Shown: positions 1 through 39,224 of the stretch, one piece after another
How positions within the stretch are numbered: position 1 is the first letter of the stretch
Layout of the letters: the number at the start of each line of letters is the position of its first letter
Source: Gammaproteobacteria bacterium
GTDB lineage: Bacteria > Pseudomonadota > Gammaproteobacteria > Steroidobacterales > JABDLF01
NCBI GenBank assembly: GCA_013003115.1
Contig: JABDLF010000058.1
Location: 3,716-67,715, forward strand
Length of the DNA stretch: 64,000 nucleotides
Direction: 5' to 3'
The notes under the pieces: generated by a model
Database searches by the model: none
The model's input: the letters and a program-made list of their open reading frames with translations, nothing else
Told to the model about the DNA's origin: nothing
Position numbers and translations under genes: made by a program

Positions 1-1591
1 TGTTTACCGAATTGACGATTGCCGTCTGGTTTACCCGCACCATGATCTCGTCGCCGAGCACCTCGACGGCATTGCCCAGCCAGACCGGCTTGTCCTCGCT
101 GCTTTGCGCGTCGCGCCACCCCGGCGCTTCCCTGTCGAGCAGCTCCGCCGCTTCGATCGGCTCCCCGAAAGCCAGCTGCACGGTGCCGAACTCGCTCCTG
201 AGTATTTTGATTGAGCGCAGGAAATCCAGCCAGTTTTCCTTGCGTTTCGCCCGGCCGCTGAGCTCGCCAATATAACTTTGGCCTTCTACAAGTTTGTCGT
301 AACCGATATACACCGGCACAAAGGCAAGCGGACGATCAGCATTACCTGCGAAACTCCGGAGCGTCATCGCCAACATGCCGGGCTTCGGCCTGAGCAGCCG
401 GCCAGTCCGCGACCGCCCTCCTTCAATGAAATATTCGATAGACACGCCTTTCGCGAGATTAGCGCGCAGGTACTCGTGAAAAACAGCGGCGTATAGCTTG
501 TTCCCCCGGAAGCTGCGGCGCAAAAAAAACGCACCACCACGTCTCAGCACCCCGCCGAGGATTGGCAGATTCAGGTTCAGCCCGGCGGCAATATGAGGCG
601 GCACCAGGCCATGCTGATAAACCACAAAGGACAGCAGCAGGTAGTCGATATGACTGCGGTGACAGGGCGTGTAGATGATCGTGTGCGTGCGTGACAGCGC
701 CAGCAGTCCGTCAATATTGTGTACTGCGATACCGTCATAGAGCCGATTCCAGATCCAGGAGAGGATCTTCTCGGCAAAGCGCACGAAACCAGGCGAATAA
801 TCGGCCGCGATTTCCAGCGCATATTTTCGCGCCTCGGCTACTACCTCTGCGTCCTGGACCTTTCGTGCCCGCGCCTCGCGCACGATTTGGCGGCTTACGG
901 GGGGAGCTTTGAGCAACTGACCGATAAGCGTATTGCGGTGCGACAGGTCGGGGCCAATGGTCGCGGTGCGCACGCCCTTGAAATGCACACGAAGCAAGCG
1001 AGCCAGCCTGCGCGCGGCAGTGGTTTTTTCCGTCTCTTCTCCCAGGCTTTCGCGCACGGGCAGCGGCTTGCCGACCTGCACAAGGACCGTGCGACCGTGC
1101 AGGAAAATTGTGAGTAGTTTTCGGAGCCTCCCCTTCGGCTTCCAGCGCTCGGCAAAAAGCGCCTTGAAAACCGAGGTTTCCTTTTCAGGCGAGCGCCCCC
1201 AGAAAATTGAGACCGGCACGAGTTGAACGTCCACCGCTTCGTCATCAACCACCGCATCCGCGATGTTGCGGAGCAGGTCGGGTACCTGCTGCTCGACCCG
1301 CTTCGGCAGCCAGCCGCGCATGCGCGCCGTCGCGAACACCGAACGCGGCGCCGTGAAATCGCCGATCTGAAGTTCTGCGGCGGGCCGATGTAAATCCGCG
1401 TTGCGCATTTCGCGCTCAAGAACGAGCAGGTCGGCAAGGGATCTCATCTCCAGCACGTAGCAGACCGGAAGATTCTGATCAATCTGCAGCGAATCCAGGT
1501 CCTCAGGAAGCAAACGCGGCCGCACCCAGATATTTAACAGGCGTCGCGTGAGGCCAAGGCCCAGCCGGTCGAGACCGAGGTAACGGTTCAT
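1..1591 (-). CDS. plsB: Glycerol-3-phosphate 1-O-acyltransferase PlsB (3' end runs off the window; absent from the ORF track)
   Basis: Manual translation from ATG at 1591 (MNRYLGLDRLG...) contains CHRSHIDY (HxxxxD), HIAAGLNLN, GAFFLRR and YFIEGGRSRTG acyltransferase blocks. Confidence 0.93.
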   Translation of the reverse strand, partial: MNRYLGLDRLGLGLTRRLLNIWVRPRLLPEDLDSLQIDQNLPVCYVLEMRSLADLLVLEREMRNADLHRPAAELQIGDFTAPRSVFATARMRGWLPKRVEQQVPDLLRNIADAVVDDEAVDVQLVPVSIFWGRSPEKETSVFKALFAERWKPKGRLRKLLTIFLHGRTVLVQVGKPLPVRESLGEETEKTTAARRLARLLRVHFKGVRTATIGPDLSHRNTLIGQLLKAPPVSRQIVREARARKVQDAEVVAEARKYALEIAADYSPGFVRFAEKILSWIWNRLYDGIAVHNIDGLLALSRTHTIIYTPCHRSHIDYLLLSFVVYQHGLVPPHIAAGLNLNLPILGGVLRRGGAFFLRRSFRGNKLYAAVFHEYLRANLAKGVSIEYFIEGGRSRTGRLLRPKPGMLAMTLRSFAGNADRPLAFVPVYIGYDKLVEGQSYIGELSGRAKRKENWLDFLRSIKILRSEFGTVQLAFGEPIEAAELLDREAPGWRDAQSSEDKPVWLGNAVEVLGDEIMVRVNQTAIVNSVN

Positions 1592-1592
1592 C

Positions 1593-1937
1593 CTAGTCTG
1601 GCCCCCAAAGTTGCTCGTCCAGGCTGGTCTGCCATCCAAATCGAACCAGGTCGACACGTCCGGTTGCTGCGTTTACGCCTTCCTCGGCCAGCTTCGCAAC
1701 CTGTCGCTCGAAGCCCCGGCTGCCTGCGGGAAACGCCAGGCTGCCGTCAGCGCGCAAAACCCTGTGCCACGGCAGCTCATCGCGCCCGGTCAGTTCCCCA
1801 AGCAGCCTGCCCACCAGCCTTGCGCGGCCCGGCAGACCGGCCACCTCGGCAACTCTGCCATAGGGACAGACCCGCCCCTTCGGGATTTCAGCCACCGCTT
1901 TCATTATGGCCGTCGCATATGATTTGCGAACCGGCAT
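1593..1937 (-). CDS. Alkyltransferase-like protein (ATL, YbaZ/Atl1 type; MGMT family)
   Basis: IPKGRV..YG..A, ARLVG and PWHRV (Trp in place of the catalytic Cys of PCHRV). Confidence 0.9.
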   Translation of the reverse strand: MPVRKSYATAIMKAVAEIPKGRVCPYGRVAEVAGLPGRARLVGRLLGELTGRDELPWHRVLRADGSLAFPAGSRGFERQVAKLAEEGVNAATGRVDLVRFGWQTSLDEQLWGPD

Positions 1938-1957
1938 TTTTCAGTGCGTCCCGCCGC

Positions 1958-3952
1958 CTACCAGTGTATGCCCTTGGTAAACTGCGCCAGCGCAATTTGC
2001 TCCGGCGACGGCTTGTGCACGATTTCACCCTTACCGGACTTGTCACCCTTGGCTGCGGACGAGTCGCCGAACATCTGAAATGCCGTATTCATTCCAACTT
2101 CGGTCAGCTTTGGCGCAAGCAGATGCAGGATCTGAGCGGTTACACCAAGGCGCGTTGCTATCCTGACAGGGCGATGAATTATCGCATCGGCTACCATGTC
2201 CGCCGCCTCGTCCGAACTGATAGTAGGCACATTTTCATAAATCTTGGTCGGCGCGATCATTGGTGTTCGAACCAAAGGCATGTTTATCGTTGTAAACCGC
2301 ACGTTGCGATCAGAAAACTCAGATCCCGCACACCTCGTAAAAGCATCAAGCGCCGACTTCGAGGCCACGTAGGCCGAAAATCGCGGCGCATTACTCAACA
2401 CACCGATGGATGAGATATTAATGACATGTCCGCGCTTGCGCTCTGCCATACCCGGCAGGAAGCCAAGTATCATACGCAGGGCACCGTAGTAGTTGAGCTG
2501 CATGGTGCGCTCAAAGTCATGGAAGCGATCAAAAGAGCTGGCGATGCTCCGGCGAATCGAGCGCCCCGCATTGTTCACAAGGATATCGACGCCACCAAAA
2601 TCTCCTATCACATCCACTACGAGTTGCTCGCAGGAGTCGGCGTCTGACAAATCTGCGGCATACATGCTGACATCCCCACCCGCATTGCGGATAAGCTCAG
2701 CCGTTTCGGCAAGCTTTTCCTCTCCACGCGCTACGATGATCACCCGCGCACCCGCCTCTCCCATACGCACCGCTGTGGCCTGACCGATACCCGAGGACGC
2801 GCCCGTAACGAGCACAACCTTGCCCGCAACGCGCCCGGAGAGCGTCCTGTCCAGGAAGAGATCCGGGTCCATGTGGCGCTCCCAGTAGTCCCAGAGCTTC
2901 CAGGCATAGTCCTCCAGATCCGGGACTCTGATATCACTGTCTGCAAGCGCGGCCTCAGTTTCGCGGCTGTCGAAACGGGTCGGATAGTTGATAAAGCTGA
3001 GCATATCGGCAGGCAGGTGCAGGTCTTCGAGCAGGGACTTGAGCATGCGTCGCACAGGCGCAACGGAGCCGATTCCCTTCCAGACGTACGACGGTATAAA
3101 TCCGAACATGCGCGCGTTGACCCGCATGGTCATCTCAGGCGCATGCGCAGCGCGAGCAAAGATGTTCAGCACGTCGCCAATTCGCCGCGCGCTGGGATCC
3201 GTCAGGTGGAAACACTTGCCATCGAGATCAGGCTTGTGGGCGATGTGATCCAGCGCTGCCGCAACGAAGTCGACCGGCACAATGTTGATACGCCCGCCTT
3301 CAACGCCGATCGTCGGCATCCAGCGTGGCAGCGTGCGGCGCAGCTTCTGAATGCCTTTGAAGAAGTAATAGGGACCATCGATCTTGTCCATCACTCCGGT
3401 TTCAGAATCGCCAACCACCACGCCCGGGCGATAAATTCTCCACGCCCGCCCGTAATTCTTTCTGACCAAAGCCTCCGATTCGTGTTTCGTCCTGAAGTAA
3501 GGGTGGCTGAGACCCTCCGCCTCTTCAAACATGTCCTCGCGAAAAACGCCGTTGTAAGTCCCGGCGGCAGCGATCGAACTCACCATGTGCAGAGTGCCGG
3601 CCTCAATGTCCTCTGCGAAACCGAGAACGGAGCTGGTGCCGTGAATGTTTACCTGCTCCTGAATGTCGGCCGGGGCGCCAAGATCATAAATTGCAGCCAG
3701 GTGAAAAAAGTGGTCGATGTTGCCTTTTATTTTCTTTCTGTCGGCCGCGCTGACACCCAGGTTGTCTGCGGTGAGATCGCCATCGATTGCGACAAGCCTG
3801 TCGCCTGGATCATCCATGCCGCGACGTAATTCTTCAAAACGATCGGCGCTTTCTTTTCTTGCCAGCACATAGACTGTTCCGCCACGCGCCAGGAGTTTGG
3901 CAACGAGTCTCTTGCCGATGAAACCGGTACCGCCGGTAACAAAGTAATTCAT
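1958..3952 (-). CDS. Two-domain SDR, fatty acyl-CoA reductase (extended SDR plus Acr1-like classical SDR)
   Basis: N-terminal YFVTGGTGFIG and HLAAIYD; second domain VTGASSGIG, NNAGRSIRR, YVASK; start moved to ATG 3952. Confidence 0.85.
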   Translation of the reverse strand: MNYFVTGGTGFIGKRLVAKLLARGGTVYVLARKESADRFEELRRGMDDPGDRLVAIDGDLTADNLGVSAADRKKIKGNIDHFFHLAAIYDLGAPADIQEQVNIHGTSSVLGFAEDIEAGTLHMVSSIAAAGTYNGVFREDMFEEAEGLSHPYFRTKHESEALVRKNYGRAWRIYRPGVVVGDSETGVMDKIDGPYYFFKGIQKLRRTLPRWMPTIGVEGGRINIVPVDFVAAALDHIAHKPDLDGKCFHLTDPSARRIGDVLNIFARAAHAPEMTMRVNARMFGFIPSYVWKGIGSVAPVRRMLKSLLEDLHLPADMLSFINYPTRFDSRETEAALADSDIRVPDLEDYAWKLWDYWERHMDPDLFLDRTLSGRVAGKVVLVTGASSGIGQATAVRMGEAGARVIIVARGEEKLAETAELIRNAGGDVSMYAADLSDADSCEQLVVDVIGDFGGVDILVNNAGRSIRRSIASSFDRFHDFERTMQLNYYGALRMILGFLPGMAERKRGHVINISSIGVLSNAPRFSAYVASKSALDAFTRCAGSEFSDRNVRFTTINMPLVRTPMIAPTKIYENVPTISSDEAADMVADAIIHRPVRIATRLGVTAQILHLLAPKLTEVGMNTAFQMFGDSSAAKGDKSGKGEIVHKPSPEQIALAQFTKGIHW

Positions 3953-4061
3953 GATCAGATTCCCAGTTACTTGTTGTGGCCGCACCCGGTCGGCGGCAGT
4001 TCATTGCGGGAACGCGTCAGTATACGCCATGCGTAAGGCAAATTTCATCGCTAACGAGCTG

Positions 4062-4373
4062 CTATTCCGGCAGCCGAAGGCGCCCGGTCAGGATCTGGGC
4101 AAACATGAGAAAATCGCCGAGCAGGCTGTAAAACGGATGTGTGAAGGTGGCCGGTCGGTTTTTTTCGAAGATCAGGTGACCAAGCCAGGCAAAGCCATAT
4201 CCCACCACCGGCAGGAGCCAGAGCAGCTCCCAGCGCCGGCTTGCCAGGGCCAGCAGCAAAGTAAATATCGACAGGGCCGTCCCGACAAAATGCAGCCGGC
4301 GGCAGTTAGGGTGCTTATGCTGCGAAAGGTAAAACGGGTAGAACTCGCTAAAGTTTCTGAATCGCCTCGACAA
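4062..4373 (-). CDS. DUF962/Mpo1-like small membrane protein
   Basis: FYPFYLSQH, RRLHFVG, GYGFAWLGH..FEKNRPATF. Confidence 0.85.
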   Translation of the reverse strand: MSRRFRNFSEFYPFYLSQHKHPNCRRLHFVGTALSIFTLLLALASRRWELLWLLPVVGYGFAWLGHLIFEKNRPATFTHPFYSLLGDFLMFAQILTGRLRLPE

Positions 4374-4385
4374 GTCCCGCCCTCC

Positions 4386-5141
4386 TCAAGGCCCGGAAGT
4401 CACCTTGTAATTCCCGCGGCTCTTGTCATAGTCGAGCTCAAGCAACTTGTTTGCTGCGGCCTCCTTCAGCATCTCTGAGAAGCTTCGATAACCGTAGTAG
4501 GTTTCATCAAAACCGGGATGGACGCGACGCAGCGTCTGCTTTACCAGGGAGCCCCAGACCGGATCGTAGTCGGCCTCCAGAGAATTCACGATGCCTAGCA
4601 GCATCTCCATGGCCTCATCTTTCTTGGTTTTCCTGGCCCCTTTCTTGCCGGACGGGCGGGCCTTCTTGCGAGCCTTGCGAATCAGGTCATCGTAATAAAT
4701 AAACTCGTCACAGTTGGCAATGAGTAAATCCGATGTCGAACTCTTGACACCGCAACCGACTACCCGCTTGTTGTTTTCCTTGAGCTTCGAGACCAGCGGC
4801 GAGAAATCGCTGTCGCCGGAAACGAGCACAAAAATATCTATGTGATTCTTTGCGTAGCAAAGATCCAGCGCATCTACCACCATGCGAATATCTGCGCTGT
4901 TCTTACCACTCACGCGCGTCTGCGGAATGTCGATCATCTCCACGCCGTGACGATGAAACTCCTGCACTGCCGGGCGGTAGTTGCTCCAGTCGCAGTAAGC
5001 ACGCTTGAACACCAGCCGGCCTTTCTCCAGAAGTCGCTTTAAGACAAGGTCGATGCGGAACCTGTCTTCCTTCATGTCGCGCGCGCCGAGGGCCAGATTC
5101 TCGAAGTCTATGAAAACGGCAATCAGCGGTTCGTTGGACAT
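4386..5141 (-). CDS. NYN (LabA/DUF88, PIN-like) domain protein with C-terminal OST-HTH/LOTUS domain
   Basis: FIDFEN, GKNSADIRMVVD, SGDSDF, CDEFIYYD; C-terminal PGFDETYYGYRSFSEML. Confidence 0.9.
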   Translation of the reverse strand: MSNEPLIAVFIDFENLALGARDMKEDRFRIDLVLKRLLEKGRLVFKRAYCDWSNYRPAVQEFHRHGVEMIDIPQTRVSGKNSADIRMVVDALDLCYAKNHIDIFVLVSGDSDFSPLVSKLKENNKRVVGCGVKSSTSDLLIANCDEFIYYDDLIRKARKKARPSGKKGARKTKKDEAMEMLLGIVNSLEADYDPVWGSLVKQTLRRVHPGFDETYYGYRSFSEMLKEAAANKLLELDYDKSRGNYKVTSGP

Positions 5142-5171
5142 GATTTTACTCTGCTTGCCCGCTGCGAATGC

Positions 5172-6752
5172 TCAGGCGAGCGCTTCGTAGTCAGCAAGGC
5201 TGGCTTCGGCGTAGGAGTCCGAATGGGTGACGGGCTTAACGGGCTGGCTTATGTTGATAACGAGAAAATCGGAGGGTCGCTCATGGGCGAGCCCTACGAC
5301 CACGTTGACCCGGCCTTTGCGCCGGTCTTCCTCTGTCGTCGTCTCGCGATCACACTTCACAAACCAGGCTTGCCCCGAATTAAATTCCCCGAACGCGCCG
5401 AGGGCCTGACAGCGCAACAGAAACTCCTCCACCTTGCCCTGCAGGCGGCCCCACAGTGCCGCGTCGTTTTTTTCAAAGGCTGCCCAGCCGGTCCCCTCTC
5501 GCACGCTGTCGATGACAAGGAGCGCAAATCGACGGTTCGAGAGACTGCGCCATTCCGCCGCGGGGCAGTCAGCCCCTGCAAGCGTGCGGTCTCCCTCCAG
5601 TACGCGAATACTGCGGCCATGTGAGCGCAGGCAATTTATTCCGCTTTTGATCAGACTCTCGCACTCGTAGTCATCTACCTCGTCCGCAAATCTCCTGACG
5701 CCGCGCAGCGGCACATGAACACTGCCTGGACCGCGCCAGGGCCCCGCGTCCAGATCGCACCTGGCGAGCAAGCCGGCAACCGTGCCGCAGGGCGCAAACT
5801 CCGAACGCCCTCCCTGCAACTCGTCATCCATGATCAGCCGGGGATAAAAAATCGCCGTATTCTCGTTACTCATGCCAAGGTCGCCGAGACCCGCAATCGC
5901 GTCGTCGGGCGAGCGCCAGATGCTGGGTGGATCAGCAATGTAAATCGCCTTGTGCCTGCGACAGAATTCCGCCGCAAAATGCATCGCAGCAAAACCGAGA
6001 TCGTGATTGCGCGAAAGCGGCGGCAGGCAAAGAAGATTAAACTGCGGGCCACCGATCAGAGCGTGCAGACCTGACTGCTCGCGCTCGGAGCCGATAATAT
6101 CGTTGTCGCTCAGTGGCCTGCCGTCGTCGCCATCGCCCGCAGCCACCACGTAGCCACCGTCGACTCCCGATCCAAGATTATGCGTGCTGTCGGGACGCGC
6201 TCTTGGCACACCATCGCGAACTCTCACAAGCATGGAGTCGTACAGCACATCGGTGATAAAGCGCTCTGAATCGGCGCGCGTCGATACCCGCGGGAAGATC
6301 TCCTGGTCTTCGACGATGGCTGAGTCAATACCGCGCACGCGCTGTATGGTCAGGTTAAAACGGGTCGAAGAGTCAGGGATATTGTCGTAGTCCACGGCCG
6401 CACGCAGGAAGACGCCGCTGCCGGGATGCAGGGCTGCAAGCACAAGATAATCACTGCCTGCAGGAAGACGCAGAGTGTTGTGACGCCCGCCGTTGATGGC
6501 GCGAACAATAACTGCCTGCTGGCCACCGTTGAGGAAAAAGTGGCGAACCGCGTAGCTCATGGTGCTCGGCATCCACAGCCCGCCGAACACACGTTCAAAC
6601 TGATCGAAGTTCTGGATGGCGACGGGAAAATTCGCCGGGCCGCGACGGGCGCGCCCGACAAACGCCGTCACAGAAGTGGGCGCCATGGGGATCGACTCGG
6701 CCTCGCCGGCCCCGACCGCCACGTATATGCCGGTATCCTCCAGTTCGGACAC
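5172..6752 (-). CDS. Contractile phage tail sheath family protein (solitary)
   Basis: TAFVGRARRGP, FERVFGGL, YAVRHFFLNGG, INCLR, RTL, WAAFEKND..LW, FVKCDRETTT; GTG start at 6752 after GGAGGAG. Confidence 0.85.
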   Translation of the reverse strand: MSELEDTGIYVAVGAGEAESIPMAPTSVTAFVGRARRGPANFPVAIQNFDQFERVFGGLWMPSTMSYAVRHFFLNGGQQAVIVRAINGGRHNTLRLPAGSDYLVLAALHPGSGVFLRAAVDYDNIPDSSTRFNLTIQRVRGIDSAIVEDQEIFPRVSTRADSERFITDVLYDSMLVRVRDGVPRARPDSTHNLGSGVDGGYVVAAGDGDDGRPLSDNDIIGSEREQSGLHALIGGPQFNLLCLPPLSRNHDLGFAAMHFAAEFCRRHKAIYIADPPSIWRSPDDAIAGLGDLGMSNENTAIFYPRLIMDDELQGGRSEFAPCGTVAGLLARCDLDAGPWRGPGSVHVPLRGVRRFADEVDDYECESLIKSGINCLRSHGRSIRVLEGDRTLAGADCPAAEWRSLSNRRFALLVIDSVREGTGWAAFEKNDAALWGRLQGKVEEFLLRCQALGAFGEFNSGQAWFVKCDRETTTEEDRRKGRVNVVVGLAHERPSDFLVINISQPVKPVTHSDSYAEASLADYEALA

Positions 6753-6886
6753 AGCTCCTCCGCTTTTGCCCACTGGGGCGAACCGTGACAGTTTAAACCG
6801 AAAGCCGCGTCGGTACGAGCCTTGATGTGAATAAATACGGTTACAATCATCGTGCGGCCTCGCCGCGACCAGTCGGAGTTTGCGAC

Positions 6887-7507
6887 ATGCGCGAAAAACA
6901 TTTCATCGATTCTCATAAAGGTGCCACTGGAATTTTCATCCTTGGTTTGATCGCCTGGCATGATGCATGGGCCAATCCGACGGCGATGGTTTACCTCGCT
7001 TTGCACGGCAGCTACGGGATTTTCTGGCTCATCAAGAGCCGGGTATTCCCGGACAAGTCGTGGGAAAAGCAGGCGCCGCTCTGGTGGGGTGTCAGCATCT
7101 GGGCCGGCCTGAGCCTCTACTGGATAGCGCCATGGCTCATCGTAAGCGGAGACATTCGTGCACCGGCGTGGCTAAGCGCCGCCGCCGTCGCAGCATTTGC
7201 ATTTGGCGTGTTCCTGCATTTTTCGGCGGACATGCAAAAGCACGTTACGCTGAGCCTGCGGCCAGGTAAGCTCATGACGGATGGTCTCTGGTCGCGTATT
7301 CGCAACCCGAATTACTTCGGCGAGCTGCTGATTTATGCGTCTTTCGCCGCGCTGGCGATGCACTGGCTGCCGGCGCTCGTGCTGGCACTGTTTGTTCTGG
7401 CCTACTGGATGCCAAACATGCGACGCAAAGACAGATCGCTGTCCCGCTACGAGGGGTTTGCTGACTATCGGTCACGCAGCTGGCTGTTCGTTCCTTTCTT
7501 AATCTGA
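6887..7507 (+). CDS. DUF1295 / steroid 5-alpha reductase-like membrane protein
   Basis: ADMQK, TDGLWSRIRNPNYFGELLIY and several TM segments; ATG 6887 with GGAG. Confidence 0.8.
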   Translation: MREKHFIDSHKGATGIFILGLIAWHDAWANPTAMVYLALHGSYGIFWLIKSRVFPDKSWEKQAPLWWGVSIWAGLSLYWIAPWLIVSGDIRAPAWLSAAAVAAFAFGVFLHFSADMQKHVTLSLRPGKLMTDGLWSRIRNPNYFGELLIYASFAALAMHWLPALVLALFVLAYWMPNMRRKDRSLSRYEGFADYRSRSWLFVPFLI

Positions 7508-7520
7508 GATCCGTGCCCCA

Positions 7521-8429
7521 ATGAGCAGCACCAAACTCGAAAAACTTGCAGCACAGCTGGAAGCCAGCGACGCCTACCGTGTCCTCAGACGACTGGTCGA
7601 CGTGCCAGCCTATAACGAGCCGGACCCGGAACTTCGGGCCAGTGGCCGATTGCGATCGGGCGTTTACATAGACGTGGAAACCACGGGGCTCGACTCCTCC
7701 ACCGATCAGGTAATTGAACTTGCCTTGCTGCCGTTCGAGTTTTCGCTGGATGGTCAGATCTTCGCGGTGCACTCCGGCTATGGCGGGCTGCGAGACCCGG
7801 GCATTCCGATCCCGGCCGAGATCACGCAGCTGACCGGCATCGACGACGCCATGGTCAAAGGGCAACAACTGGACAACGGCAAAATCGAGGCCGTGATCGA
7901 GCCGGCTCACCTTGTAGTCGCGCACAACGCGGCTTTCGATCGGCCATTCGCGGAGCAGCTCCATCCGCTGTTCGAAACCAAAGCCTGGGCGTGCTCAATA
8001 AATGACGTCCCCTGGCGAGAAGAAGGCCTGGGCGTCGCGAAGCTGGACTATCTCGCCTGTCAATTCGGCTTTTTTTATGATGCCCACCGTGCCGGCGATG
8101 ACTGCCGCGCCGGCGTACATCTGCTCAGCAAAACGTTGCCGACGAGTGGCCGACTGGTACTCGCCGAACTCCTCGACAGGGCGCGCCGCAAGACCATCAG
8201 GATCTGGGCGCTTGGCAGCCCCTTCGATAGCAAGGACAAACTCCGGGAACGAAAATATCGCTGGAATGGCGGCGAAGACGGCCGGCCAAAATCCTGGTAT
8301 CGCGATATTGACGAAAGCGAATTCGACAAGGAGCTCGAGTATCTCAAGTCAGAAATCTTCTCGGGTCACCTTCCCGATCTCCCAACCGATACGATCAACG
8401 CCTTCAATCGTTATTCCTCGCGGGCGTAG
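7521..8429 (+). CDS. DEDDh 3'-5' exonuclease (DNA polymerase III epsilon-like)
   Basis: DVETTG, AHNAAFD, HRAGDD. Confidence 0.88.
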   Translation: MSSTKLEKLAAQLEASDAYRVLRRLVDVPAYNEPDPELRASGRLRSGVYIDVETTGLDSSTDQVIELALLPFEFSLDGQIFAVHSGYGGLRDPGIPIPAEITQLTGIDDAMVKGQQLDNGKIEAVIEPAHLVVAHNAAFDRPFAEQLHPLFETKAWACSINDVPWREEGLGVAKLDYLACQFGFFYDAHRAGDDCRAGVHLLSKTLPTSGRLVLAELLDRARRKTIRIWALGSPFDSKDKLRERKYRWNGGEDGRPKSWYRDIDESEFDKELEYLKSEIFSGHLPDLPTDTINAFNRYSSRA

Positions 8430-9829
8430 CGCGAGCCAAACCAGGCGATCAGCAATGCAAGCAGCAACGGCAGCAGCCGCTCACTGATATCGCCAGGCGT
8501 GTCGGGACGTGAATGCAGCAGCACGGTGAGACCGAAACCTGTCACCAGGCAGGCGAGGATCGCGCCGCTGTTGACCACGCGCCCCATGATTTTCATAAGC
8601 ACCAGCGGGCCGAACGCCGAACCAACAGCGTGCCAGGCAAACAGAACACGACTGAAGATCCGGTCGGGCGCATAAATCGCCAGCAGCACGGCAAGACCGC
8701 AGACGCCACCCACCACCCAGCGCGAAGTTGCGAGCCTCGGCAAGACTCCCCGCCTGAGCTTACCCAAATCATGTGCGACCGATGACGCCGCTACCAGCAG
8801 CTGGCTGTCTGCCGTCGACATGATGGCCGACAGTACGGCCGCAATCATGATGCCAGCGAGCACCGGCGGCATGAGCGTGTTGGCGGCAACATACAGCACC
8901 TGCTCGCCTGAGCCGGCGAACTCAAAAGTCAGGACACGGGCGCAGAGGCCAAGCAGCAGCATGCCAGCATAAACCACGATCGCCCAACCCACGGCAATCA
9001 TTCTTGCCTGTCGCAAAGCCGCCTGATCGCGCAGAGCCATAAACCGGTTTACAACATGTGGCTGACCGGGGTAACCAAGACCGATTCCCAGCGTGCCTGC
9101 AATAAAACCGAAACCGGCGATTCCTGCGTGCACGCCCGTCGCGCTGAGTTCGTGCGGCAGGCTGACCAGTGTAAGGCCCGCCGCAAGCCCGGAAAATCCG
9201 CCGGCAGCGATCAGCGCAGTCACGGGCAACACGACGGCGGTCAGCGCCATAAGCAGCCCCTGAACCGTATCGGTTACGCTCACGGCCCAGAACCCGCCAA
9301 GCAGCGTATAGAACAGAATGATCACCGCGCCCACCACGATCGCGGTGGTCGTCGACATCCCGAATGTGCTCGCAAAGGCATCGCCGGCCGCCTGGAACTG
9401 CGCCGCGATATAGAAAATAAACGAAAACAGGATGATGATGCTGGCCACCCGCACAATGAGCGGATAAAGCGCGTTTGAGCGTTCTCCGCTGATGGCGTCC
9501 GTCAAAGTCACGTAGCCGTTGGCACGGCTAAGGCGCATCAGCCCCGGTGCGATCAGGAACCAGTTAATAAGAAACCCGGATACCGTTGCCGGGAACAACC
9601 ACAGTGCCGGCAGACCAAGCGCATAGGCAGCGCCACTGACGCCCAGCAGCGTCCACGCGGACGATGAGCTCGCCGACGCACTTATTCCGGCAACCAGCGG
9701 GCCTATGCGCCGGCCGCCGAGAAAAAAGTCATCATTGTCCAGCGTTCGACGGCTTGCCCACAGACCAATAATCACCAGCAAAATCTTGTAGGCGATCAGG
9801 GTGAGCAGGATTGCCAGCGTCTTGTCCAT
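8411..9829 (-). CDS. putP: Sodium/proline symporter (SSS family)
   Basis: DFFLGGR, SSSAWTLLG, YTLLGGFWAVSVTD, LGYPGQPH..RFMA, SAIMSTADSQLL. Confidence 0.85.
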   Translation of the reverse strand: MDKTLAILLTLIAYKILLVIIGLWASRRTLDNDDFFLGGRRIGPLVAGISASASSSSAWTLLGVSGAAYALGLPALWLFPATVSGFLINWFLIAPGLMRLSRANGYVTLTDAISGERSNALYPLIVRVASIIILFSFIFYIAAQFQAAGDAFASTFGMSTTTAIVVGAVIILFYTLLGGFWAVSVTDTVQGLLMALTAVVLPVTALIAAGGFSGLAAGLTLVSLPHELSATGVHAGIAGFGFIAGTLGIGLGYPGQPHVVNRFMALRDQAALRQARMIAVGWAIVVYAGMLLLGLCARVLTFEFAGSGEQVLYVAANTLMPPVLAGIMIAAVLSAIMSTADSQLLVAASSVAHDLGKLRRGVLPRLATSRWVVGGVCGLAVLLAIYAPDRIFSRVLFAWHAVGSAFGPLVLMKIMGRVVNSGAILACLVTGFGLTVLLHSRPDTPGDISERLLPLLLALLIAWFGSRYAREE

Positions 9830-9949
9830 TATTTTTCCAGGCGGCTTTTGCTTGTGCGCCCAACGCTAACACAGGCGTACGGCAACCCCGCGCGTGGAGC
9901 GCTGCGTTACACTGCGGTTCCGGCAATCTGTCGGCTATGCGACTCGAGT

Positions 9950-12900
9950 ATGGCAGCCAAACAAGTAATGCGCGTCGACAAAAACAGGGCCTGGCGATTC
10001 TGGGTAGATCGCGGCGGGACCTTTACAGACGTGATTGGAATAGCGCCGGACGGCCATGTTGAAACGCGCAAGCTCCTGTCGGAGAGAGTCGGCACGGACA
10101 GCGAGGCAGCGCTGATTGGCATCGGCGACATCCTGGGCATCGACCCCTTTGATAAAAACGAAGAACGGCAGGTTTTCGAGCTGCGCCTCGGAACAACCGT
10201 GGCCACCAACGCACTGCTGCAGAGAAAGGGCGCAAAAACGGCCCTGCTGATCACCCGCGGTTTCGGCGACGCATTAAGAATTGGCTACCAGAACCGCCCG
10301 CAACTCTTTGCACGCGAGATTCGTTTGCCAGCCCCTCTGTACTCGATGGTAATCGAATGCAATGAGCGCACAGCAGCGGACGGTGGCCTGATCGAGGCCC
10401 TGGACGAGGATGAACTTGAACGAAAACTGATCGAGGCGAAGAACGCCGGCATCAACTCGCTCGCTGTCGTGTTCCTGCATGCGTACGCGCATTCTCACAA
10501 CGAGCGCCGGGCCGCAGACCTGTCCAGGCAAATTGGGTTCAGCAATGTGTCAGCCTCCCATGAGGTGAATCCTGTTATCAAACTGGTGGCGCGCGGCGAC
10601 ACCACTGTCGTCGACGCCTACCTCAATCCGGTGCTGCGCGCGTATACCGAATCCATGCGTGAACAGCTTGCCAACAGACTGACCGGGCCATCCCTTTTGT
10701 TTATGCAGAGCAACGGCGGATTGACGACCGCCGGGGCATTTCGCGGCAAGGACAGCGTACTTTCAGGCCCCGCCGGCGGCGTAGTCGGCATGGTTGAGAG
10801 CGCGGCCGCCGAGGGGTTTGGCAAGGCGATCGGGTTCGACATGGGCGGCACGTCCACAGACGTTTCCATTTATGACGGGCGCTTTGAGCGCAGCGAGGAA
10901 ATGGAGATCGCCGGAGCGCGCCTGCGATCGGCAATGCTCCGGATTCACACGGTCGCCGCAGGCGGGGGCTCGATACTGTCTTTCAAAGAAGGCCGGCTGC
11001 AGGTCGGCCCGCATTCCGCCGGTGCAAGGCCTGGCCCTGCAGCCTACGGAGCCGGCGGGCCGCTGACGGTTACAGATTGCAGCGTGCTGCTGGGGCGCCT
11101 GCAGCCCAATCTTTTCCCGCAAATTTTCGGCGACGACGGGCGTTCCCCACTGCAGCTTGCTGCTGTTAAACGAAAATTCGAGGCGCTCGTTGCGGAGCTG
11201 TCTGCAGCCGGCTTCAAGAGCGGTTCCCTTGAGCTGGCAGAGCTATTCCAGGATATTGCCGTGCAGCGTATGGCGCGCGCCATTAAAAAAGTTGCCCTGG
11301 ACGGCGGTCATGATCTGAGCGACTTTGTTCTGGTGGCCTTCGGGGGGGCCGGGCCGCAGCATGCATGCCAGGTTGCGGATGAACTGGGAATAAGCCGAAT
11401 CCTCGTGCATCCCCTGGCCGGACTGCTCTCGGCGCTTGGGATTGGCCTTGCGCCCGTCAGCTCAGTGCTTGAAAAAACGGTGCGACTGCCTCTGGACGAG
11501 AGCGGACTCGAGTCCCTCGCCAATGAGTCGCGTGCCCTTCGCCACGAGGCACGCCGCGAGATGCAGAATCGCCTTGCAGATGAGGACGCGACGGTGACCA
11601 CCGAAACCACCGTCAAGCTTCGCTACGCCGGAACTGACACCAGTCTGCCTGTCGCGGCCGGTGATGTGCAGGCTATGCGCCGTCAGTTTGAACAGGAGCA
11701 CCTCGCACGGTTTGGATTTGCATCGCCGGAGAAACCGCTGCTCGTCGAAAGCCTGATGGTGCTGGCGCAGTCCGGTTCCGGCATCGCCGCTCCGTCGCCA
11801 GCTTCAGCTGTCCCGGGCAAACCTGCAAAATGCCAGCCCGCAGCAACGCACTCGGTGCATTTCCAGGGACGCGATCTCGACACCGGGTTTTTTGTTCGCC
11901 AAAGCCTGGCGCCAAATGACAAAATCCCGGGTCCGGCGGTGATTATTGAAGACGGCGCCACTACGGTCATCGAGCCCGGCTGGATTGCGAACCTGACGCA
12001 GACGGGTCAGCTGCTCATGACCCGGCTTGCCGAAGATGCCGCTCCTGCTGCCTTACATTTGCACGACGGTGATACCAGGGCGGACCCGGCGCGGCTCGAA
12101 GTCTTTAACAATCTGTTTATGCATATCGCCGAGCAGATGGGCGCCGTGCTACGTAACACCGCGCGCTCGGTGAACATCAAGGAGCGACTGGATTTTTCGT
12201 GTGCCGTTTTTGACGCCGCCGGAGCGCTGGTCGCGAACGCGCCCCACATGCCCGTGCACCTGGGCTCGATGGGCGAAAGCGTGAAAGCCGTAATTCGTGA
12301 CAACCCGGCCATGAGGCCCGGGGACGTCTACATGCTCAACGACCCCTATCGCGGTGGTACTCATCTGCCCGATATCACCGTGGTCACACCGGTTTTCCTG
12401 GCCGGCGAGCGGGCACCCGATTTGTTCGTGGCGGCACGGGGTCACCATGCCGACGTTGGCGGTATCAGCCCGGGATCAATGCCGCCGCATAGTAAGCACA
12501 TAGAGCAGGAGGGCGTGCTTTTCAGTAACTTTCTGCTGGTGCGCGAAGGGCATTTCAGAGAGGCCGAGCTTGCGGCCGCCTTGTGCAATCCCCCGTACCC
12601 GGCCCGCAATCCCGAACAGAACATTGCTGATCTCAAGGCACAAGTTGCTGCCTGCCGCCAGGGAGAGCGCCTGCTGTATGAAAGCGCGGGCAGATTCGGA
12701 CTCGACGTCTTGCGCGCGTATCTGCAGCACATTCAGGACAACGCCGAGGAAGCAGTGCGTCACGTCTTGTCGCGTCTGGACGACGGCAACTTCGACTACC
12801 CTCTCGACAACGGCCTGCTGATTCGGGTTGCGGTGCGTGTCAATCGAAACGCGCGTGAAGCAACCGTGGACTTCAGCGGCAGTTCGCTTCAGCATGATGG

Positions 12901-13618
12901 CAACTTCAATGCGCCGTTTGCAGTGTGCCGCGCCGCGGTTCTGTACGTCTTCCGGTGTCTCGTTGACGCCCCCATTCCGTTGAATGCCGGATGTCTCAAA
13001 CCTATCAGGATTATTGCACCTGAAGGCAGCATCCTGAATCCGTATCCGCCCGCCGCCGTCGTAGCCGGCAACGTCGAAACCTCGCAGGCGATCACCAATG
13101 CCTTGTTCGGCGCGCTGGGAACCATGGCCGCCGCCCAGGGCACTATGAACAATTTTACGTTTGGCGATGAACACCGTCAGTACTACGAAACCATTGCCGG
13201 TGGCGCAGGCGCAGGGCCCGGATTCCGGGGTGCCGACGCTGTACAGACACACATGACCAACTCCCGACTCACCGACGCTGAAGTGCTTGAGTTACGCTTT
13301 CCTGTGCGGCTGCGTGAGTTCTCGATTCGCCAGGGATCCGGCGGTGCCGGCCAGCATGCCGGCGGCAACGGCGTGACGCGGGATATCGAGTTTCTGGCGC
13401 CCATGCAGGCCGCCATACTCTCAGGCCACCGTGACGTGCCTCCCTTTGGCCTGCATGGGGGCAAACCGGGCCGCTGCGGTCACAATGTCCTGCGCCGAAG
13501 CGACGGGCAGCTGATCAACCTTGGCGCCACGGCCAGCGTCAAAGCAGAGCCCGGCGACCGGATAATTATAGAGACACCCGGCGGGGGTGGATTCGGCAAG
13601 CCCGATTCAGGTGCCTGA
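9950..13618 (+). CDS. oplA: 5-oxoprolinase, ATP-hydrolysing (fused hydantoinase A/B type)
   Basis: [73 protein letters not shown]; start 9950 or 9968. Confidence 0.93.
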
Positions 13619-14223: not shown

Positions 14224-15315
14224 ATGAATCACCTCGAACAAGCATTCCCTGCTACCGCAGAAGCGTTGCCACGCAGGTCGTTCGCCTTGCTGCCGACACC
14301 CGTAGAAACACTTCCCGTGCACAGGCCGAACACGCAGGTCTGGATCAAGCGCGATGACCTGAGTGGCCTCGAGTATGGTGGCAACAAGGTGCGCAAGCTC
14401 GAATACCTGCTCGGTCATGCGGTCGAGAACGGCTTGAGAAAGGTAGTGACGTTCGGCACCGCCGGGTCCAACCATGCCCTGGCAACCGGCATCTATGCCG
14501 GCCAGGAAGGGCTGCGCAGCATCTCCATGCTTACGCCGCAAACAAATGCCGCTTACGTCGCGCGCAACCTCCTGCGCGGCCTGCGCGCCGGCATTGAATT
14601 TCACGCCTGCCGCGACGACAGCGCCGTGAAGCGGGCCCTGCCCTGGGTTCGGCTGCGCCACAGGATCAGCGATGGCAAGGCACCGATGGTGATCGCGGGG
14701 GGCGGCTCATCGGTCGCTGGCACCATTGGCTTCGTGAACGCGGGGTTCGAACTGCGCGCCCAGATCGACGCCGGCCAGCTGCCTGAGCCCGACTTCATTT
14801 ATGTCGCGCTGGGCACCATGGGCACTGCGGCCGGCCTGCTGCTCGGCATCCGGGCCGCCGGACTCACCAGCAAACTGGTCTGTGTCCGGGTCGTGCAGTC
14901 ACGCTACGCAAACCCGGAGAAATTTGCGGCGCTGTTGTCAGCGTCAGCTGCAAAACTCAGATATATTGCACCTGCATTTCCAGTACTCAACGAGGCCGAC
15001 CTTATTGCCGAGTTTCGCGACGAGTTTTTTGGCGGCGGTTACGCGCGCTTCACCAATGAAGGGATGCAGGCAATCAGGATTGCCAGCGAAGCAGGTTCGC
15101 CAGAGCTGGAGGGTACCTACACGGGGAAGGCCTTTGCGGCGCTGGTGCATGACCTTTCGGTGGGCCGCCTTGACGGGAAGCGAGTCCTTTTCTGGAACAC
15201 CTACAACTCGAGGCCGTTCCCATCCGATCTCGGTGACGAAGATCCCGGCGAGCTGCCACCCGAACTCCAGACCTACTTCACGCTCCCGGTTCAGGCACTC
15301 GATGCCGCAGGCTGA
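14224..15315 (+). CDS. PLP enzyme, D-cysteine desulfhydrase / ACC deaminase family
   Basis: PTPV, WIKRDDL, YGGNKVRKLEYL, SNHALAT, LEGTYTGKA; start moved to ATG 14224. Confidence 0.85.
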   Translation: MNHLEQAFPATAEALPRRSFALLPTPVETLPVHRPNTQVWIKRDDLSGLEYGGNKVRKLEYLLGHAVENGLRKVVTFGTAGSNHALATGIYAGQEGLRSISMLTPQTNAAYVARNLLRGLRAGIEFHACRDDSAVKRALPWVRLRHRISDGKAPMVIAGGGSSVAGTIGFVNAGFELRAQIDAGQLPEPDFIYVALGTMGTAAGLLLGIRAAGLTSKLVCVRVVQSRYANPEKFAALLSASAAKLRYIAPAFPVLNEADLIAEFRDEFFGGGYARFTNEGMQAIRIASEAGSPELEGTYTGKAFAALVHDLSVGRLDGKRVLFWNTYNSRPFPSDLGDEDPGELPPELQTYFTLPVQALDAAG

Positions 15316-16724
15316 CGCAAATCGTCAAGCCGGATGATCTCGCAGCGATCGGCGTTGCGCCTGAGCCAGGACTTCAGGATCCTGTAGACATCAAGATCAA
15401 ATTTCGGCTTAGCGCCGTCTTCAAGCATCGGCCGGAGGTCTTCAGTGCGCTCCGCGCTTCCCAGCCAGCACCAGTTGTCAAAAACGTGAATCGCCTGGCG
15501 ACCTCGTATCGGGTCGGACTCCCGCAGGCCTATCGTTCCGCTGAAAGGCCACGCTGACAACCGCAGTCCCGCGAGTGCGGCGGCAAGCCGGATGTTATGC
15601 ATTAGCGCGCTTTCGCGGCCTGCGCATGCGCCGCGGCAGCGCCCCAGCTGATACGCGAAACACGGACCACTGCCCTTTTCAATTCCCGAGCGGCGCAGAC
15701 ACAGGCCATCCCGAGTGCAAATCCTCTTAAGCGCGTTGTTCGCAGCCCGTTTGCTGCGAAACAAACCAAAATTTGCCCCTGGCTCCGAAGTATCGAGATC
15801 GGACTCTCCGAGCAGCACAGCGCGATGAAATTCCCCGTCGGTGTCCAGACTGAAGGTGAACATGCCACTCTGTCTGCGCAGGCGCCGGTTGTGAACCGGC
15901 GACGCTTCCTTGACCAGGCGCGCCTCGGTCAACAAGGCCCCCAACTCACCGGCTGTCTGGATGCAGCGAACGTCGGCGAGCTGCGCAGAAATACGCATGT
16001 CTTTGTGTACGGCGTGATCGGCACTGAAGTGTGACAAGACCCGCGCGCGCAGGTTGACGCTCTTGCCCACGTACAGCAAGCGCCCGGCGGCATCGTAAAA
16101 AAGGTAAACGCCCGGGCCGCCCGGCAGCTTGCTCACAATTTCGGGGTCAAGCGCCGGCGGCAGGGTCGGGCGTCTGAGCTGGGGAACCGCCGCAGCTTCA
16201 AGCGCCTTGTCGCCGTGTTCGTGCCGCGCAATTTCAAAAAAATCAAGCATAGCCCGGGCGTCGCCAAGGGCTCTGTGACGACCGGCACAGTCGATATCGT
16301 GCCTCTCGATGAGGGCATCGAGGCTGTAGCTTTTGTGACCCGGATACATCGCGCGCGCCAGCTTGACCGTGCACAGCGTCGGCATTGACAGCCTCAGGTC
16401 CGCGCGGCGAAATTCGTTGCGCAAAAACCCGTAGTCAAAGCGTGCATTGTGCGCAACCAGCACCCCGCCATCCAGAATATCGAGCAAGGATGGCGCGAGC
16501 TGTTCGAATGCCGGCGCATCAGCGAGCATAGTCTCATCTATACCGGTGTAATTCTGGATAAAAGGCGGCACAGCGCAATCGGGGTTTACAAAGCTCGACC
16601 ATTCACGAACCTTCTGACCGGCGACAAATTCAATCAGTCCGATTTCGATGATGCGGTGACGTGAAGCGTTGCCGCCCGTGGTTTCCAGGTCCAGGAATAC
16701 GAGCTTGTCTTCCCTGATGCGCAT
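15291..16724 (-). CDS. DEDDh exonuclease fused to a GIY-YIG (UvrC/Cho-like) endonuclease
   Basis: DLETTG, AHNARFD, HRALGDA followed by GVYLFY...LYVGKSVNLRARV and C-terminal Cys motifs. Confidence 0.88.
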   Translation of the reverse strand: MRIREDKLVFLDLETTGGNASRHRIIEIGLIEFVAGQKVREWSSFVNPDCAVPPFIQNYTGIDETMLADAPAFEQLAPSLLDILDGGVLVAHNARFDYGFLRNEFRRADLRLSMPTLCTVKLARAMYPGHKSYSLDALIERHDIDCAGRHRALGDARAMLDFFEIARHEHGDKALEAAAVPQLRRPTLPPALDPEIVSKLPGGPGVYLFYDAAGRLLYVGKSVNLRARVLSHFSADHAVHKDMRISAQLADVRCIQTAGELGALLTEARLVKEASPVHNRRLRRQSGMFTFSLDTDGEFHRAVLLGESDLDTSEPGANFGLFRSKRAANNALKRICTRDGLCLRRSGIEKGSGPCFAYQLGRCRGACAGRESALMHNIRLAAALAGLRLSAWPFSGTIGLRESDPIRGRQAIHVFDNWCWLGSAERTEDLRPMLEDGAKPKFDLDVYRILKSWLRRNADRCEIIRLDDLRQPAASSA

Positions 16725-22569: not shown

Positions 22570-22687
22570 TCGGGCAAGCACCATCCTGCTTGGACTGCCG
22601 CTCTGCCAAACCGGCGTGTGACCGCATCAAAGTTCTGCAATCGCGGCGCACGTGCAGCCTGAACTCCGGGTAACAGACTTACTTTAG

Positions 22688-22731
22688 TGTGATAAGCATC
22701 ACATCCCGGCTGCTCGCCTGTTTGTCATAAT
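22688..22731 (+). promoter_or_regulatory. Perfect CRP box plus extended -10 (class II-like promoter)
   Basis: TGTGA-taagca-TCACA at 22688-22703; TGtCATAAT with hexamer at 22726-22731. Confidence 0.75.
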
Positions 22732-22793
22732 ATCGCCAGTACCCGTCGCGCCTTTCACGCGCAGCGCCAACGTCATTTGACGGAGGTTTCAAC

Positions 22794-37507: not shown

Positions 37508-37509
37508 GT

Positions 37510-38772: not shown

Positions 38773-39224
38773 GCAATCGCCGCGAATCCGAGATTTTCAT
38801 CAATGCGCCGGGACTCAGGCATCGGCACCGCCGCGCCGGCGACCAGCTGCTGACGCTGATCATGTGGGCGATTTACGCCTACCTCTGGCTGCCGGTCATC
38901 AGCCTGATCGCGTGGTTCGTCGGCATTGATCTTTTTTACCAAGAGATGGTGGTCGACGGCGGCTTTGATGCGTTTATCGAACTGTCGGGGTGGTACCTTG
39001 CGGCAATTGTTCTGATTGTCCTGGCGGTTGGCGGCTGGTCTACGAGCAACTACTTTCGTTTCCATGACAAGAATCGGCGCCGGAAGCAGCCCGAAGTCAG
39101 TGACGCTGATATTGCCGAGTGGTTCCAGGTTGACAAGCAAAAGCTTGACCGGCTGCGCGCAGCCGAGCATATCTTGCTGGTTCTTGACGAAAAAGGCCTG
39201 ATAGACCAGAGCAGCGATATCTGA
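38769..39224 (+). CDS. pgaD: PNAG biosynthesis protein PgaD
   Basis: Two TM helices, W...N..RF...RR, ATGA overlap with pgaC. Confidence 0.88.
   Translation: MSNRRESEIFINAPGLRHRHRRAGDQLLTLIMWAIYAYLWLPVISLIAWFVGIDLFYQEMVVDGGFDAFIELSGWYLAAIVLIVLAVGGWSTSNYFRFHDKNRRRKQPEVSDADIAEWFQVDKQKLDRLRAAEHILLVLDEKGLIDQSSDI

Follow-up and report, generated by a model that had tools for sequence, protein, structure and literature searches.

The DNA stretch analyzed here (the window, 64,000 nt of contig JABDLF010000058.1, assembly GCA_013003115.1) encodes on its reverse strand a homolog of contractile tail sheath proteins, which we call the orphan sheath. The gene heads a same-strand run in which it is followed, after a gap of 30 nt, by a gene for a predicted NYN-LOTUS ribonuclease and then by Mpo1-like, reductase, alkyltransferase-like (ATL) and plsB genes (Table 1). 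This order, proposed in a first-pass annotation made from the letters of the sequence, is borne out by Pfam searches and, for the ATL gene, by tblastn with the copy at locus L014, which carries PF01035. The Mpo1-like family PF06127 is presumably the former DUF962. Divergently oriented upstream of the sheath lie genes for a DUF1295 protein, an RNase_T-type exonuclease, a sodium:solute symporter, and a fused oxoprolinase. Pfam scans detected no tube, baseplate, capsid, integrase, or type VI secretion system (T6SS) families among the 10 open reading frames (ORFs) of positions 1–13618 or among the 44 ORFs of at least 80 aa from 13858 on (E ≤ 1e-8), in agreement with the initial statement that no tube, baseplate, spike, capsid, integrase, or T6SS gene was recognized in the 64 kb. 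The remaining window is ordinary chromosome with pgaABCD, GroEL, UvrD, GGDEF/EAL proteins, and others.

Table 1. Features at the orphan sheath locus and the basis of their assignment.
Feature	Position	Strand	Basis
Orphan contractile-sheath homolog, 526 aa, three-domain sheath fold	5172..6752	(-)	ORF, PHROG, AlphaFold2, Foldseek
Shine-Dalgarno-like GGAGGAG	6755..6761	(-)	2 nt (GGAGG: 4 nt) upstream of GTG 6752
NYN-LOTUS (OST-HTH) predicted RNase, 251 aa	4386..5141	(-)	NYN E 1.6e-37, OST-HTH E 2.3e-5
Mpo1-like (PF06127), within the NYN-Mpo1-FAR segment between sheath and ATL	4062..4373	(-)	Pfam
Fused fatty-acyl reductase (FAR; NAD_binding_4) and SDR	1958..3985	(-)	Pfam; NF005539, 978 bits
ATL gene, part of the probably older sheath-(ATL)-plsB block	1593..1937	(-)	tblastn, 66% identity to L014 copy
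plsB (glycerol-3-phosphate acyltransferase), cut by window edge; downstream end of the probably older block	2..1657	(-)	Pfam
Fused oxoprolinase/hydantoinase A+B, syntenic locus marker across the order	9848..13618	(+)	Pfam

The sheath frame is full-length and intact and is preceded by a putative ribosome binding site (Shine-Dalgarno-like), as first described. A longer open frame (5172–6773, reverse strand) would give 533 aa from a GTG at 6773, and the GTG at 6752 gives the 526-aa protein; the GGAG and the GTG start at 6752 are kept in three genomes of the same genus. Both Pfam sheath models score under their cut-offs (Phage_sheath_1, 29.0 bits versus 31.4; Phage_sheath_1C, 20.5 bits versus 26.9), and the PHROG family phrog_23 ‘tail sheath’ covers residues 6–500 with an E-value of 4.1e-32. 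An AlphaFold2 model from an alignment of 42 homologs (predicted local distance difference test, pLDDT, 88.7; predicted template modeling score, pTM, 0.87) and a Foldseek search against PDB, where among the matches listed all top ones were sheaths (best 9ezm_A, E 8e-33), revealed the sheath fold, with two wall domains (1 and 2) and an outer domain at about residues 84–206. Folded alone, this outer domain is an ordinary sheath outer domain: it best matches 9ezm_A (Z 9.8, root-mean-square deviation 2.3 Å over 97 residues), followed by the phiCD508, DSY3957, P1, and T4 gp18 sheaths (sheath Z range 9.8 to 6.2), with no enzyme-like match and non-sheath chains at Z 3.0 at most. No NCBIfam model and no PADLOC-DB 2.0 family (E ≤ 0.01) matches the sheath, and its ESM Atlas matches are only Pseudomonadota clusters with partial sheath Pfam coverage. 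No signal peptide is visible in the protein sequence, indicating that the protein is probably cytoplasmic.

The window's genome (G000), a metagenome-assembled genome (MAG) of 2.17 Mb in 115 contigs and 82% complete, has a single sheath match and none to T4_gp19-type tube, Phage_tube, or gp25. Also lacking matches in this 82% complete genome are PF04965, PF04865, PF04717, PF14065, and PF19266; the PF14065 and PF19266 searches are weak, as their controls were positive in no reference genome, yet both models matched the extracellular contractile injection system (eCIS) locus of genome G484, and PF14065 also matched four further eCIS loci. CIS_tube, Pvc16_N, Baseplate_J, Phage_base_V, and the T6SS models for VipB (TssC; PF05943) and Hcp (PF05638) were each found in 0/5 genomes (G000–G003, which represent the window's genus, and G008 from a second family). 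Moreover, a custom tube hidden Markov model (HMM) built from ten tube proteins, which scored a left-out control locus at 1.4e-82, had no match at E ≤ 1 among the 18,235 ORFs of a six-frame translation of G000. A genome scan for tube and baseplate loci, as had been suggested at the outset, thus found none of eight contractile injection system (CIS) and T6SS families in the own genome or genus.

The same holds for most of the order. Full-length orthologs (E < 1e-60, 34–82% identity) are present in 29 of the 41 genomes of the order, nearly always in single copy, and share 34–47% identity between families. Across these 41 genomes, gp25 (PF04965) was matched in seven, the T4_gp19-type tube (PF06841) in six, and Phage_tube (PF04985) in none. 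Neither a tube nor a gp25 match was found in 23/29 carriers, 12 of which are 96–100% complete, so that genome incompleteness alone is no explanation for the solitary sheath. Real eCIS do exist in the order (G010, G012, and G032) and have their own, more distant sheath beside a tube, away from the site of the ortholog. Overall, the orphan sheath spans at least 40 clusters at 50% identity; no cultured organism is among the cluster members, whose names are ‘Steroidobacteraceae bacterium’ and ‘Pseudomonadota bacterium’ MAGs. A search of genome contigs with the single sheath protein returned six related loci.

Analysis of the neighborhoods of the homologs, another check proposed early on, showed that the orphan state is the rule. 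None of the 177 ORFs annotated within 5 kb of the ortholog at 18 loci from 18 genomes belongs to a tube or baseplate Pfam family, and tblastn with eCIS proteins gave no match at 10 further genome loci. Scanning metagenome contigs with two clade-specific peptide patterns yielded at least 600 stretches, at least 565 of them encoding relatives; the neighborhood sample of 80 loci (694 kb) contains no tube-HMM match, no eCIS protein match, and no NYN gene. A tube gene beside the orphan sheath was therefore seen at 0/28 genome loci and 0/80 metagenome loci.

The orphan gene has other, recurrent neighbors. A fused oxoprolinase lies within 5 kb of it at 15 of the 18 genome loci, usually in convergent orientation. 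An L,D-transpeptidase (YkuD) gene was found at 55/80 metagenome loci, in 55/55 cases upstream and on the same strand, together with plsB downstream on the same strand (31/80), the oxoprolinase at a distance of 51–631 bp (20/80), a rhomboid protease (19/80), and ATL downstream on the same strand (16/80). The usual locus order is YkuD, (rhomboid), sheath, (oxoprolinase on the opposite strand), (ATL), plsB. The genome of the window itself has no YkuD match at E ≤ 1e-10. The YkuD, rhomboid, and plsB surroundings hint at a link to envelope biogenesis. The same-strand run from the sheath to ATL and plsB recurs in much of the clade and is probably old, the older common layout being YkuD-(rhomboid)-sheath-(ATL)-plsB; the NYN-Mpo1-FAR segment, confined to the window's genus and G008, is probably a later insertion. 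The YkuD gene, often with a LysM domain, stands upstream of the orphan at those of the metagenome loci L065–L144 that have it and also at L019, L022, L024, L025, L028, L031, L058, and L060–L062, and the rhomboid protease gene is often placed between YkuD and sheath. At L020 (10529–11128, forward strand; G022), a gamma-glutamyl cyclotransferase-like gene (GGACT/AIG2_2) directly follows the orphan sheath and precedes the oxoprolinase, so that in this one genome two enzymes of 5-oxoproline metabolism are paired beside the sheath.

The relatives outside the order, searched in 300 sampled genomes of the class and 400 sampled from the phylum, show what such a locus looks like when it belongs to a machine. 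Strong full-length sheath matches were few. The best four (G295, G136, G132, and G091; 35–40% identity) each lie in a classic eCIS operon of sheath, PF06841 tube, a T4_baseplate-like gene, one unnamed gene, and Pvc16_N, followed by an AAA ATPase in G295 and G136, the two loci that extend far enough. The tube directly follows the sheath in all six eCIS-context relatives (by Pfam in G484, G295, G132, G091, and G157, by the tube HMM in G136), and at the best eight loci of the viral collection it comes just after the sheath in 8/8, where the sheaths also carry the canonical motifs described below. The first-pass annotation had stated that sheath genes of myophages, tailocins, and eCIS normally adjoin a tube gene. 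These Afp/PVC-like eCIS sheaths (~516–530 aa, one frame of 569; 28–30% identity to the orphan for G484 and G157) share the three-domain layout of the orphan and form its sister group in the trees. They differ from it in the gene order, with tube, T4_baseplate-like, Pvc16_N, and AAA ATPase genes downstream, in the retention of PGVYIEE, GVWKAPAG, WGARTL, and FAPLKPAEFV, and in a conservation profile that is the opposite of that of the orphans.

Searching the clade profile against solved structures placed the Streptomyces coelicolor cytoplasmic CIS closest (8bky, E 2.7e-77; 8bl4, E 9.4e-75) and 9ezm next, far ahead of the Afp, PVC, pyocin, and T4 sheaths. The best match in the phage database was the sheath of Bacillus phage BCD7 with only 25.7% identity, and none was higher over the whole length, indicating that there is no close phage source. 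IQ-TREE (LG+G4) analysis of 28 orphans and six eCIS-context sheaths recovered the orphans as one clade with 100/100 support. The stem of this clade measures 0.5 changes per site, and each of the nine families represented by two or more sequences is monophyletic (support 97–100), so that the orphan clade asked for in the initial annotation exists and follows the taxonomy. A smaller tree agreed with this, although one long row in it was unstable. In a 107-row FastTree, to which 75 of the 50%-identity representatives had been added, a single clade (support 97) comprises the 19 orphan loci together with 25 representatives lacking the motifs and one that has a single motif; it sits beside the motif-bearing sheaths. 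One orphan clade with monophyletic families is consistent with a single capture event close to the base of the order and subsequent vertical descent. Outside the orphan clade, a 542-aa sheath of G536 (L038:8233–9861, reverse strand) has all canonical motifs and Pfam scores above cut-off; its neighbors are a 201-aa AAA fragment and housekeeping genes, with no tube among the ORFs scanned, and it looks like a recent eCIS remnant.

Orphan and machine-bound sheaths also differ in where they are conserved. Ten eCIS-context sheaths are near-invariant at four motifs, PGVY[IV]EE near the N-terminus, GVWKAPAG, [VI]WG[AS]RTL, and FAPLKPAEFV near the C-terminus, which confirms the motifs listed as typical in the first-pass annotation; the altered versions it listed for the window sheath (TGIYVAV, GPWRGPG, LEGDRTL, and AHERPSDF) are all present. 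Among 19 orphans all four sites are variable, the strings of the window being one version among many; of the columns that at least 85% of eCIS sheaths conserve, 41 have been lost. Looser forms of the N- and C-strand patterns remain in 21/28 and 23/28 orphans, respectively. Thus, constraints typical of a working sheath (N- and C-strand motifs, GVWKAPAG, WGARTL) are relaxed in the orphans. The orphan clade has motifs of its own, VDYD, FNLxxQR, and [DE]xQE[IS][FY], and the window protein lies inside this clade and shares the synteny with oxoprolinase, ATL, and plsB. None of the four canonical motifs occurs in 119 of the 120 best 90%-cluster matches, and all 119 have one or more of the orphan motifs. 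Of the 149 best representatives at 50% identity, 42 lack any canonical motif and 99 have two or more. This motif count is partly circular, since the clade motifs were derived from the same groups; in sequences outside the motif-defining set the motif classes are almost perfectly bimodal.

The loss of the canonical motifs is not accompanied by decay of the gene. No stop codon interrupts the sheath matches of the 29 genomes, and the frame stays open for 525 codons or more in 67/67 metagenome copies that are complete, i.e., do not run into a contig end. Within the genus, the nonsynonymous divergence (dN) of the sheath is 0.09–0.19, compared to 0.26–0.31 for the oxoprolinase and 0.23–0.34 for the RNase_T exonuclease. 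Mean pairwise identity among 15 non-redundant orphans is 0.42 in the outer domain (residues 84–206), 0.36 in the rest of the protein, and 0.33 in the C-terminal half of the wall; for five eCIS sheaths of the same architecture the values are 0.27, 0.53, and 0.66. Residues conserved specifically in orphans include the polar D121, Y122, Q137, R138, Q150, and R177 of the outer domain. Purifying selection on the orphan is thus strong and has moved to the surface outer domain, and is not relaxed overall. Closest homologs in complete eCIS or prophage loci combined with relaxed selection on this copy had been named beforehand as the pattern that would speak against domestication; only its first half is found, as the nearest non-orphan relatives do sit in eCIS operons and selection is strong and redistributed.

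Taken together, the orphan very probably represents a machine-independent domestication of an eCIS (Afp/PVC-like) sheath, which probably has a new role. The first-pass annotation had proposed a domesticated sheath, and the intact frame, the purifying selection, the vertical inheritance across the order, and carriers mostly without tube or gp25 matches all speak for it. In the scenario that we favor, a one-time capture of an eCIS sheath close to the base of this gammaproteobacterial order would have been followed by vertical transmission as a single-copy chromosomal gene; in most carriers, no genes for the tube, baseplate, spike, and ATPase were found. The protein would stay in the cytoplasm, where its strand-exchange arms, degenerate but retained, might still let it self-assemble into a static ring or tubule resembling polysheaths. 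Such an assembly would be freed from tube binding, baseplate docking, and switching between two states, which would account for the strict wall motifs having been lost. The conserved outer domain could then be presented as a binding surface for a partner. Two published reports are in line with this idea: a recombinant phage sheath protein is reported to form polysheaths without other viral proteins (PMC6357053), and domains 1 and 2 of the Streptomyces Cis2 sheath are described as its wall, with domain 3 on the surface (PMC10066040). The full architecture with its N-terminal arm, the relaxed strand patterns, and the existence of tubule-forming phage sheaths make self-assembly into a tube-less cytoplasmic polymer, one of the three roles suggested in the first-pass annotation, the most plausible one, and we consider the chances that the orphan now serves as a self-assembling cytoplasmic scaffold to be about even. 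A more elaborate version, in which a tube-less, non-contractile cytoplasmic polymer with a conserved docking site on its outward-facing domain works as a cytoskeleton-like scaffold of viral origin together with the envelope-building genes YkuD, rhomboid, and plsB, its companions since the clade arose, is rather unlikely when taken as a whole. In this version, a phage-tail sheath would have become a new kind of intracellular structure in bacteria, established throughout an order of Gammaproteobacteria that abound in sediment and soil.

To our knowledge, contractile sheaths are known only as parts of machines, namely phage tails, tailocins, eCIS, and T6SS. Searches of open-access papers yielded no description of orphan sheaths. 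The sheath has been retained alone for long, with 34–47% identity between families, at least 40 clusters at 50% identity, at least 565 metagenome loci, and strong, redistributed selection. This would be a clear example of one structural protein of viral origin taken over for a task in the cell. A further consequence is that a sheath annotation in a genome is no evidence of a contractile injection system.

Several known systems can be compared with the orphan. Cis2 of S. coelicolor (8bky, 8bl4, 9gtp, and 9gts), its best solved relative by profile, is likewise a single-protein, three-domain sheath with domain 3 on the surface, and its machine is described as cytoplasmic (PMC10066040). However, Cis2 contracts and works with a tube, a baseplate, and further components, genes for which are absent near the orphan and, mostly, genome-wide. 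The sheath of the Halogeometricum borinquense CIS (9ezm), contracted according to its PDB title, is the best structural match (TM-score 0.69/0.74) at 19–25% sequence identity. Polysheaths of gp053 from phage FV3 and of T4 gp18 provide a precedent for stable tubules made of sheath only (PMC6357053), but are by-products or in-vitro products of proteins that have a tube partner, whereas the tube-less state of the orphan would be native and selected. T6SS TssB/TssC (VipA/VipB) belongs to the same contractile-sheath superfamily and is cytoplasmic as well. In contrast to the single-chain, eCIS-type orphan, the T6SS sheath consists of two proteins and acts with Hcp, a baseplate, and ClpV, and neither VipB nor Hcp was found in the five genomes searched.

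Several observations weigh against a domesticated scaffold. Its own genome is only 82% complete, several carriers are fragmented MAGs, and one of the 29, G018, is an unpublished genome that was counted in the tallies and left out of the trees. A tube or gp25 match occurs somewhere in the genome of 6/29 carriers; G010 and G032 each encode, apart from the orphan, a complete-looking eCIS that includes a sheath of its own, and in G037 a lone tube-like gene is located 128 kb away from the orphan sheath. The dN/dS ratio of the sheath within the genus, 0.05–0.10, is only rough because synonymous divergence (dS) is saturated near 2, and few eCIS sequences entered the conservation comparison (five for identity, eight for columns). 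It is precisely the strand motifs responsible for the sheath mesh that have degenerated, and a non-polymeric role fits this feature equally well. As for the gene of G037, it encodes a 161-aa T4_gp19-type tube-like protein (54.8 bits) between transporter genes (L050:8269–8754, reverse strand, corresponding to G037:C1:2057271–2057753). Searched against the 41 genomes, it has a real match in its own genome only and three weak ones (E 3e-5 to 9e-3), the best of which is the tube of G012's own eCIS. As it is not conserved across the order, it is ruled out as the missing partner of the orphan sheath and may be a second, independent solitary tail gene.

The main rival accepts domestication and denies the polymer: the protein would act as a monomer or small oligomer, with a ligand or protein being bound or processed by the outer domain and the wall serving only as a folding platform. 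We regard this as a possible though somewhat unlikely role. It would account for the strand and wall motifs being the least conserved parts in orphans (N-terminus 0.40 versus 0.74 in eCIS sheaths; C-half identity 0.33 versus 0.66) and for the clustering of the orphan-specific conserved polar residues along the outer-domain sequence. Against it speak the whole 500-aa three-domain architecture with its N-terminal arm, which is retained at 28 genome loci and in 67/67 complete metagenome frames, the relaxed strand patterns that persist in 21/28 and 23/28 orphans, and the outer domain, which has only the ordinary sheath fold without an enzyme-like match. A decaying, functionless remnant of a lost eCIS or prophage is the least credible of the alternatives. 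The Pfam scores under both cut-offs, the lost canonical motifs, and the long branches in the orphan clade are what a remnant would show; the intact frames in 29 genomes and in 67/67 complete metagenome frames, a dN lower than in neighboring housekeeping genes, and new clade-wide conserved motifs contradict it, and 34–47% identity between families argues against a very recent spread.

Two further roles had been proposed in the first-pass annotation, and neither is supported by the data. In the first, the orphan would be a spare or modifier subunit built into a contractile injection system whose genes lie elsewhere in the genome. This has a parallel in the Afp and PVC systems, which according to PDB titles use several sheath paralogs, and six carriers do have a tube or gp25 match elsewhere. 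Yet this trans-acting role is contradicted by the 23/29 carriers with neither match, 12 of them at least 96% complete, and the own genome and genus lack any of the eight CIS/T6SS families; besides, the motifs needed for the canonical mesh are lost. A modifier is very improbable. Only slightly less improbable is an anti-phage sensor or decoy that senses assembling phage tails and triggers the adjacent NYN-LOTUS RNase. The short same-strand gap without a terminator-like site, the recurrence of the arrangement in G008, and the weak match of the NYN protein to the PADLOC NYN model (E 1e-7) would suit such a device. However, the two genes adjoin in only 5/29 carriers and at 0/80 metagenome loci, 10 carriers have no NYN gene and three NYN genomes have no orphan, and the sheath matches no PADLOC model, so that a sensor acting with the RNase is not supported: adjacency is rare and the genes are separable. 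Defense islands are usually patchy in distribution, and the orphan locus is unlike them in being vertically inherited, syntenic housekeeping DNA.

The relation between sheath and NYN gene can be traced across the order. NYN-LOTUS homologs are present in 22/41 genomes, with 57–85% identity plus one weak match of 35%. They adjoin the sheath in G000–G003 and in G008, where the order of exonuclease, sheath, NYN, Mpo1, FAR, and ATL equals that of the window; in other carriers the NYN gene is on a different contig or, in G028, 32 kb away. No terminator-like site was found in the 30-nt gap, suggesting that sheath and NYN are probably co-transcribed in the window's genus. A conserved functional coupling of the two, as envisaged earlier, is not supported, since adjacency is limited to two families and absent from all 80 metagenome loci and each gene also occurs alone; the NYN gene would rather be a late, lineage-specific neighbor. 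Its location mostly elsewhere in genomes indicates that it is a conserved gene in its own right. Across the order NYN-LOTUS is more conserved than the sheath (57–85%, one 35%, compared to 34–82%).

Regulatory signals around the sheath gene were sparse. A sigma-70 promoter and terminator scan of positions 3900–7000 returned no more sites than shuffled sequences. Patterns for LexA, sigma-54, sigma-32, CRP, Fur, and sigma-E boxes, searched with mismatches allowed and lacking a shuffle control, gave scattered loose matches upstream of 18 orphan genes (0 to 7/18; 10 of 28 rows were without an anchor), from which nothing was concluded. Four loci of the same genus share a block about 40–90 nt upstream of the GTG (window 6770–6830, reverse strand) that resembles CTCGTACC...GCTTTnGGTTTAnACTG...CGCCCC; it could be a promoter or operator, with no convincing match to the consensuses tried. 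No Rfam family reached its gathering score in the window. The stretch is contained in 13 DNA sequencing runs labeled as beach sand or marine sediment, and no RNA sequencing run is listed among the runs containing it.

Elsewhere in the window, two genes for exonucleases of the DEDD type (RNase_T family) are found within 9 kb (7521–8429, forward strand; 15291–16724, reverse strand), the first of which matches NCBIfam NF006615 ‘3'-5' exonuclease’ with 379 bits and the PADLOC model ‘DEDDh, CAS-associated’ with an E-value of 8.3e-23. Several GGDEF/EAL genes are located at 20146–25933 and 31839–32894. Positions 33084–39224 (forward strand) harbor a complete pgaABCD-like operon for the biofilm polysaccharide poly-N-acetylglucosamine, consisting of genes for a PgaA barrel, a deacetylase/GHL13 protein, a family-2 glycosyltransferase, and PgaD.

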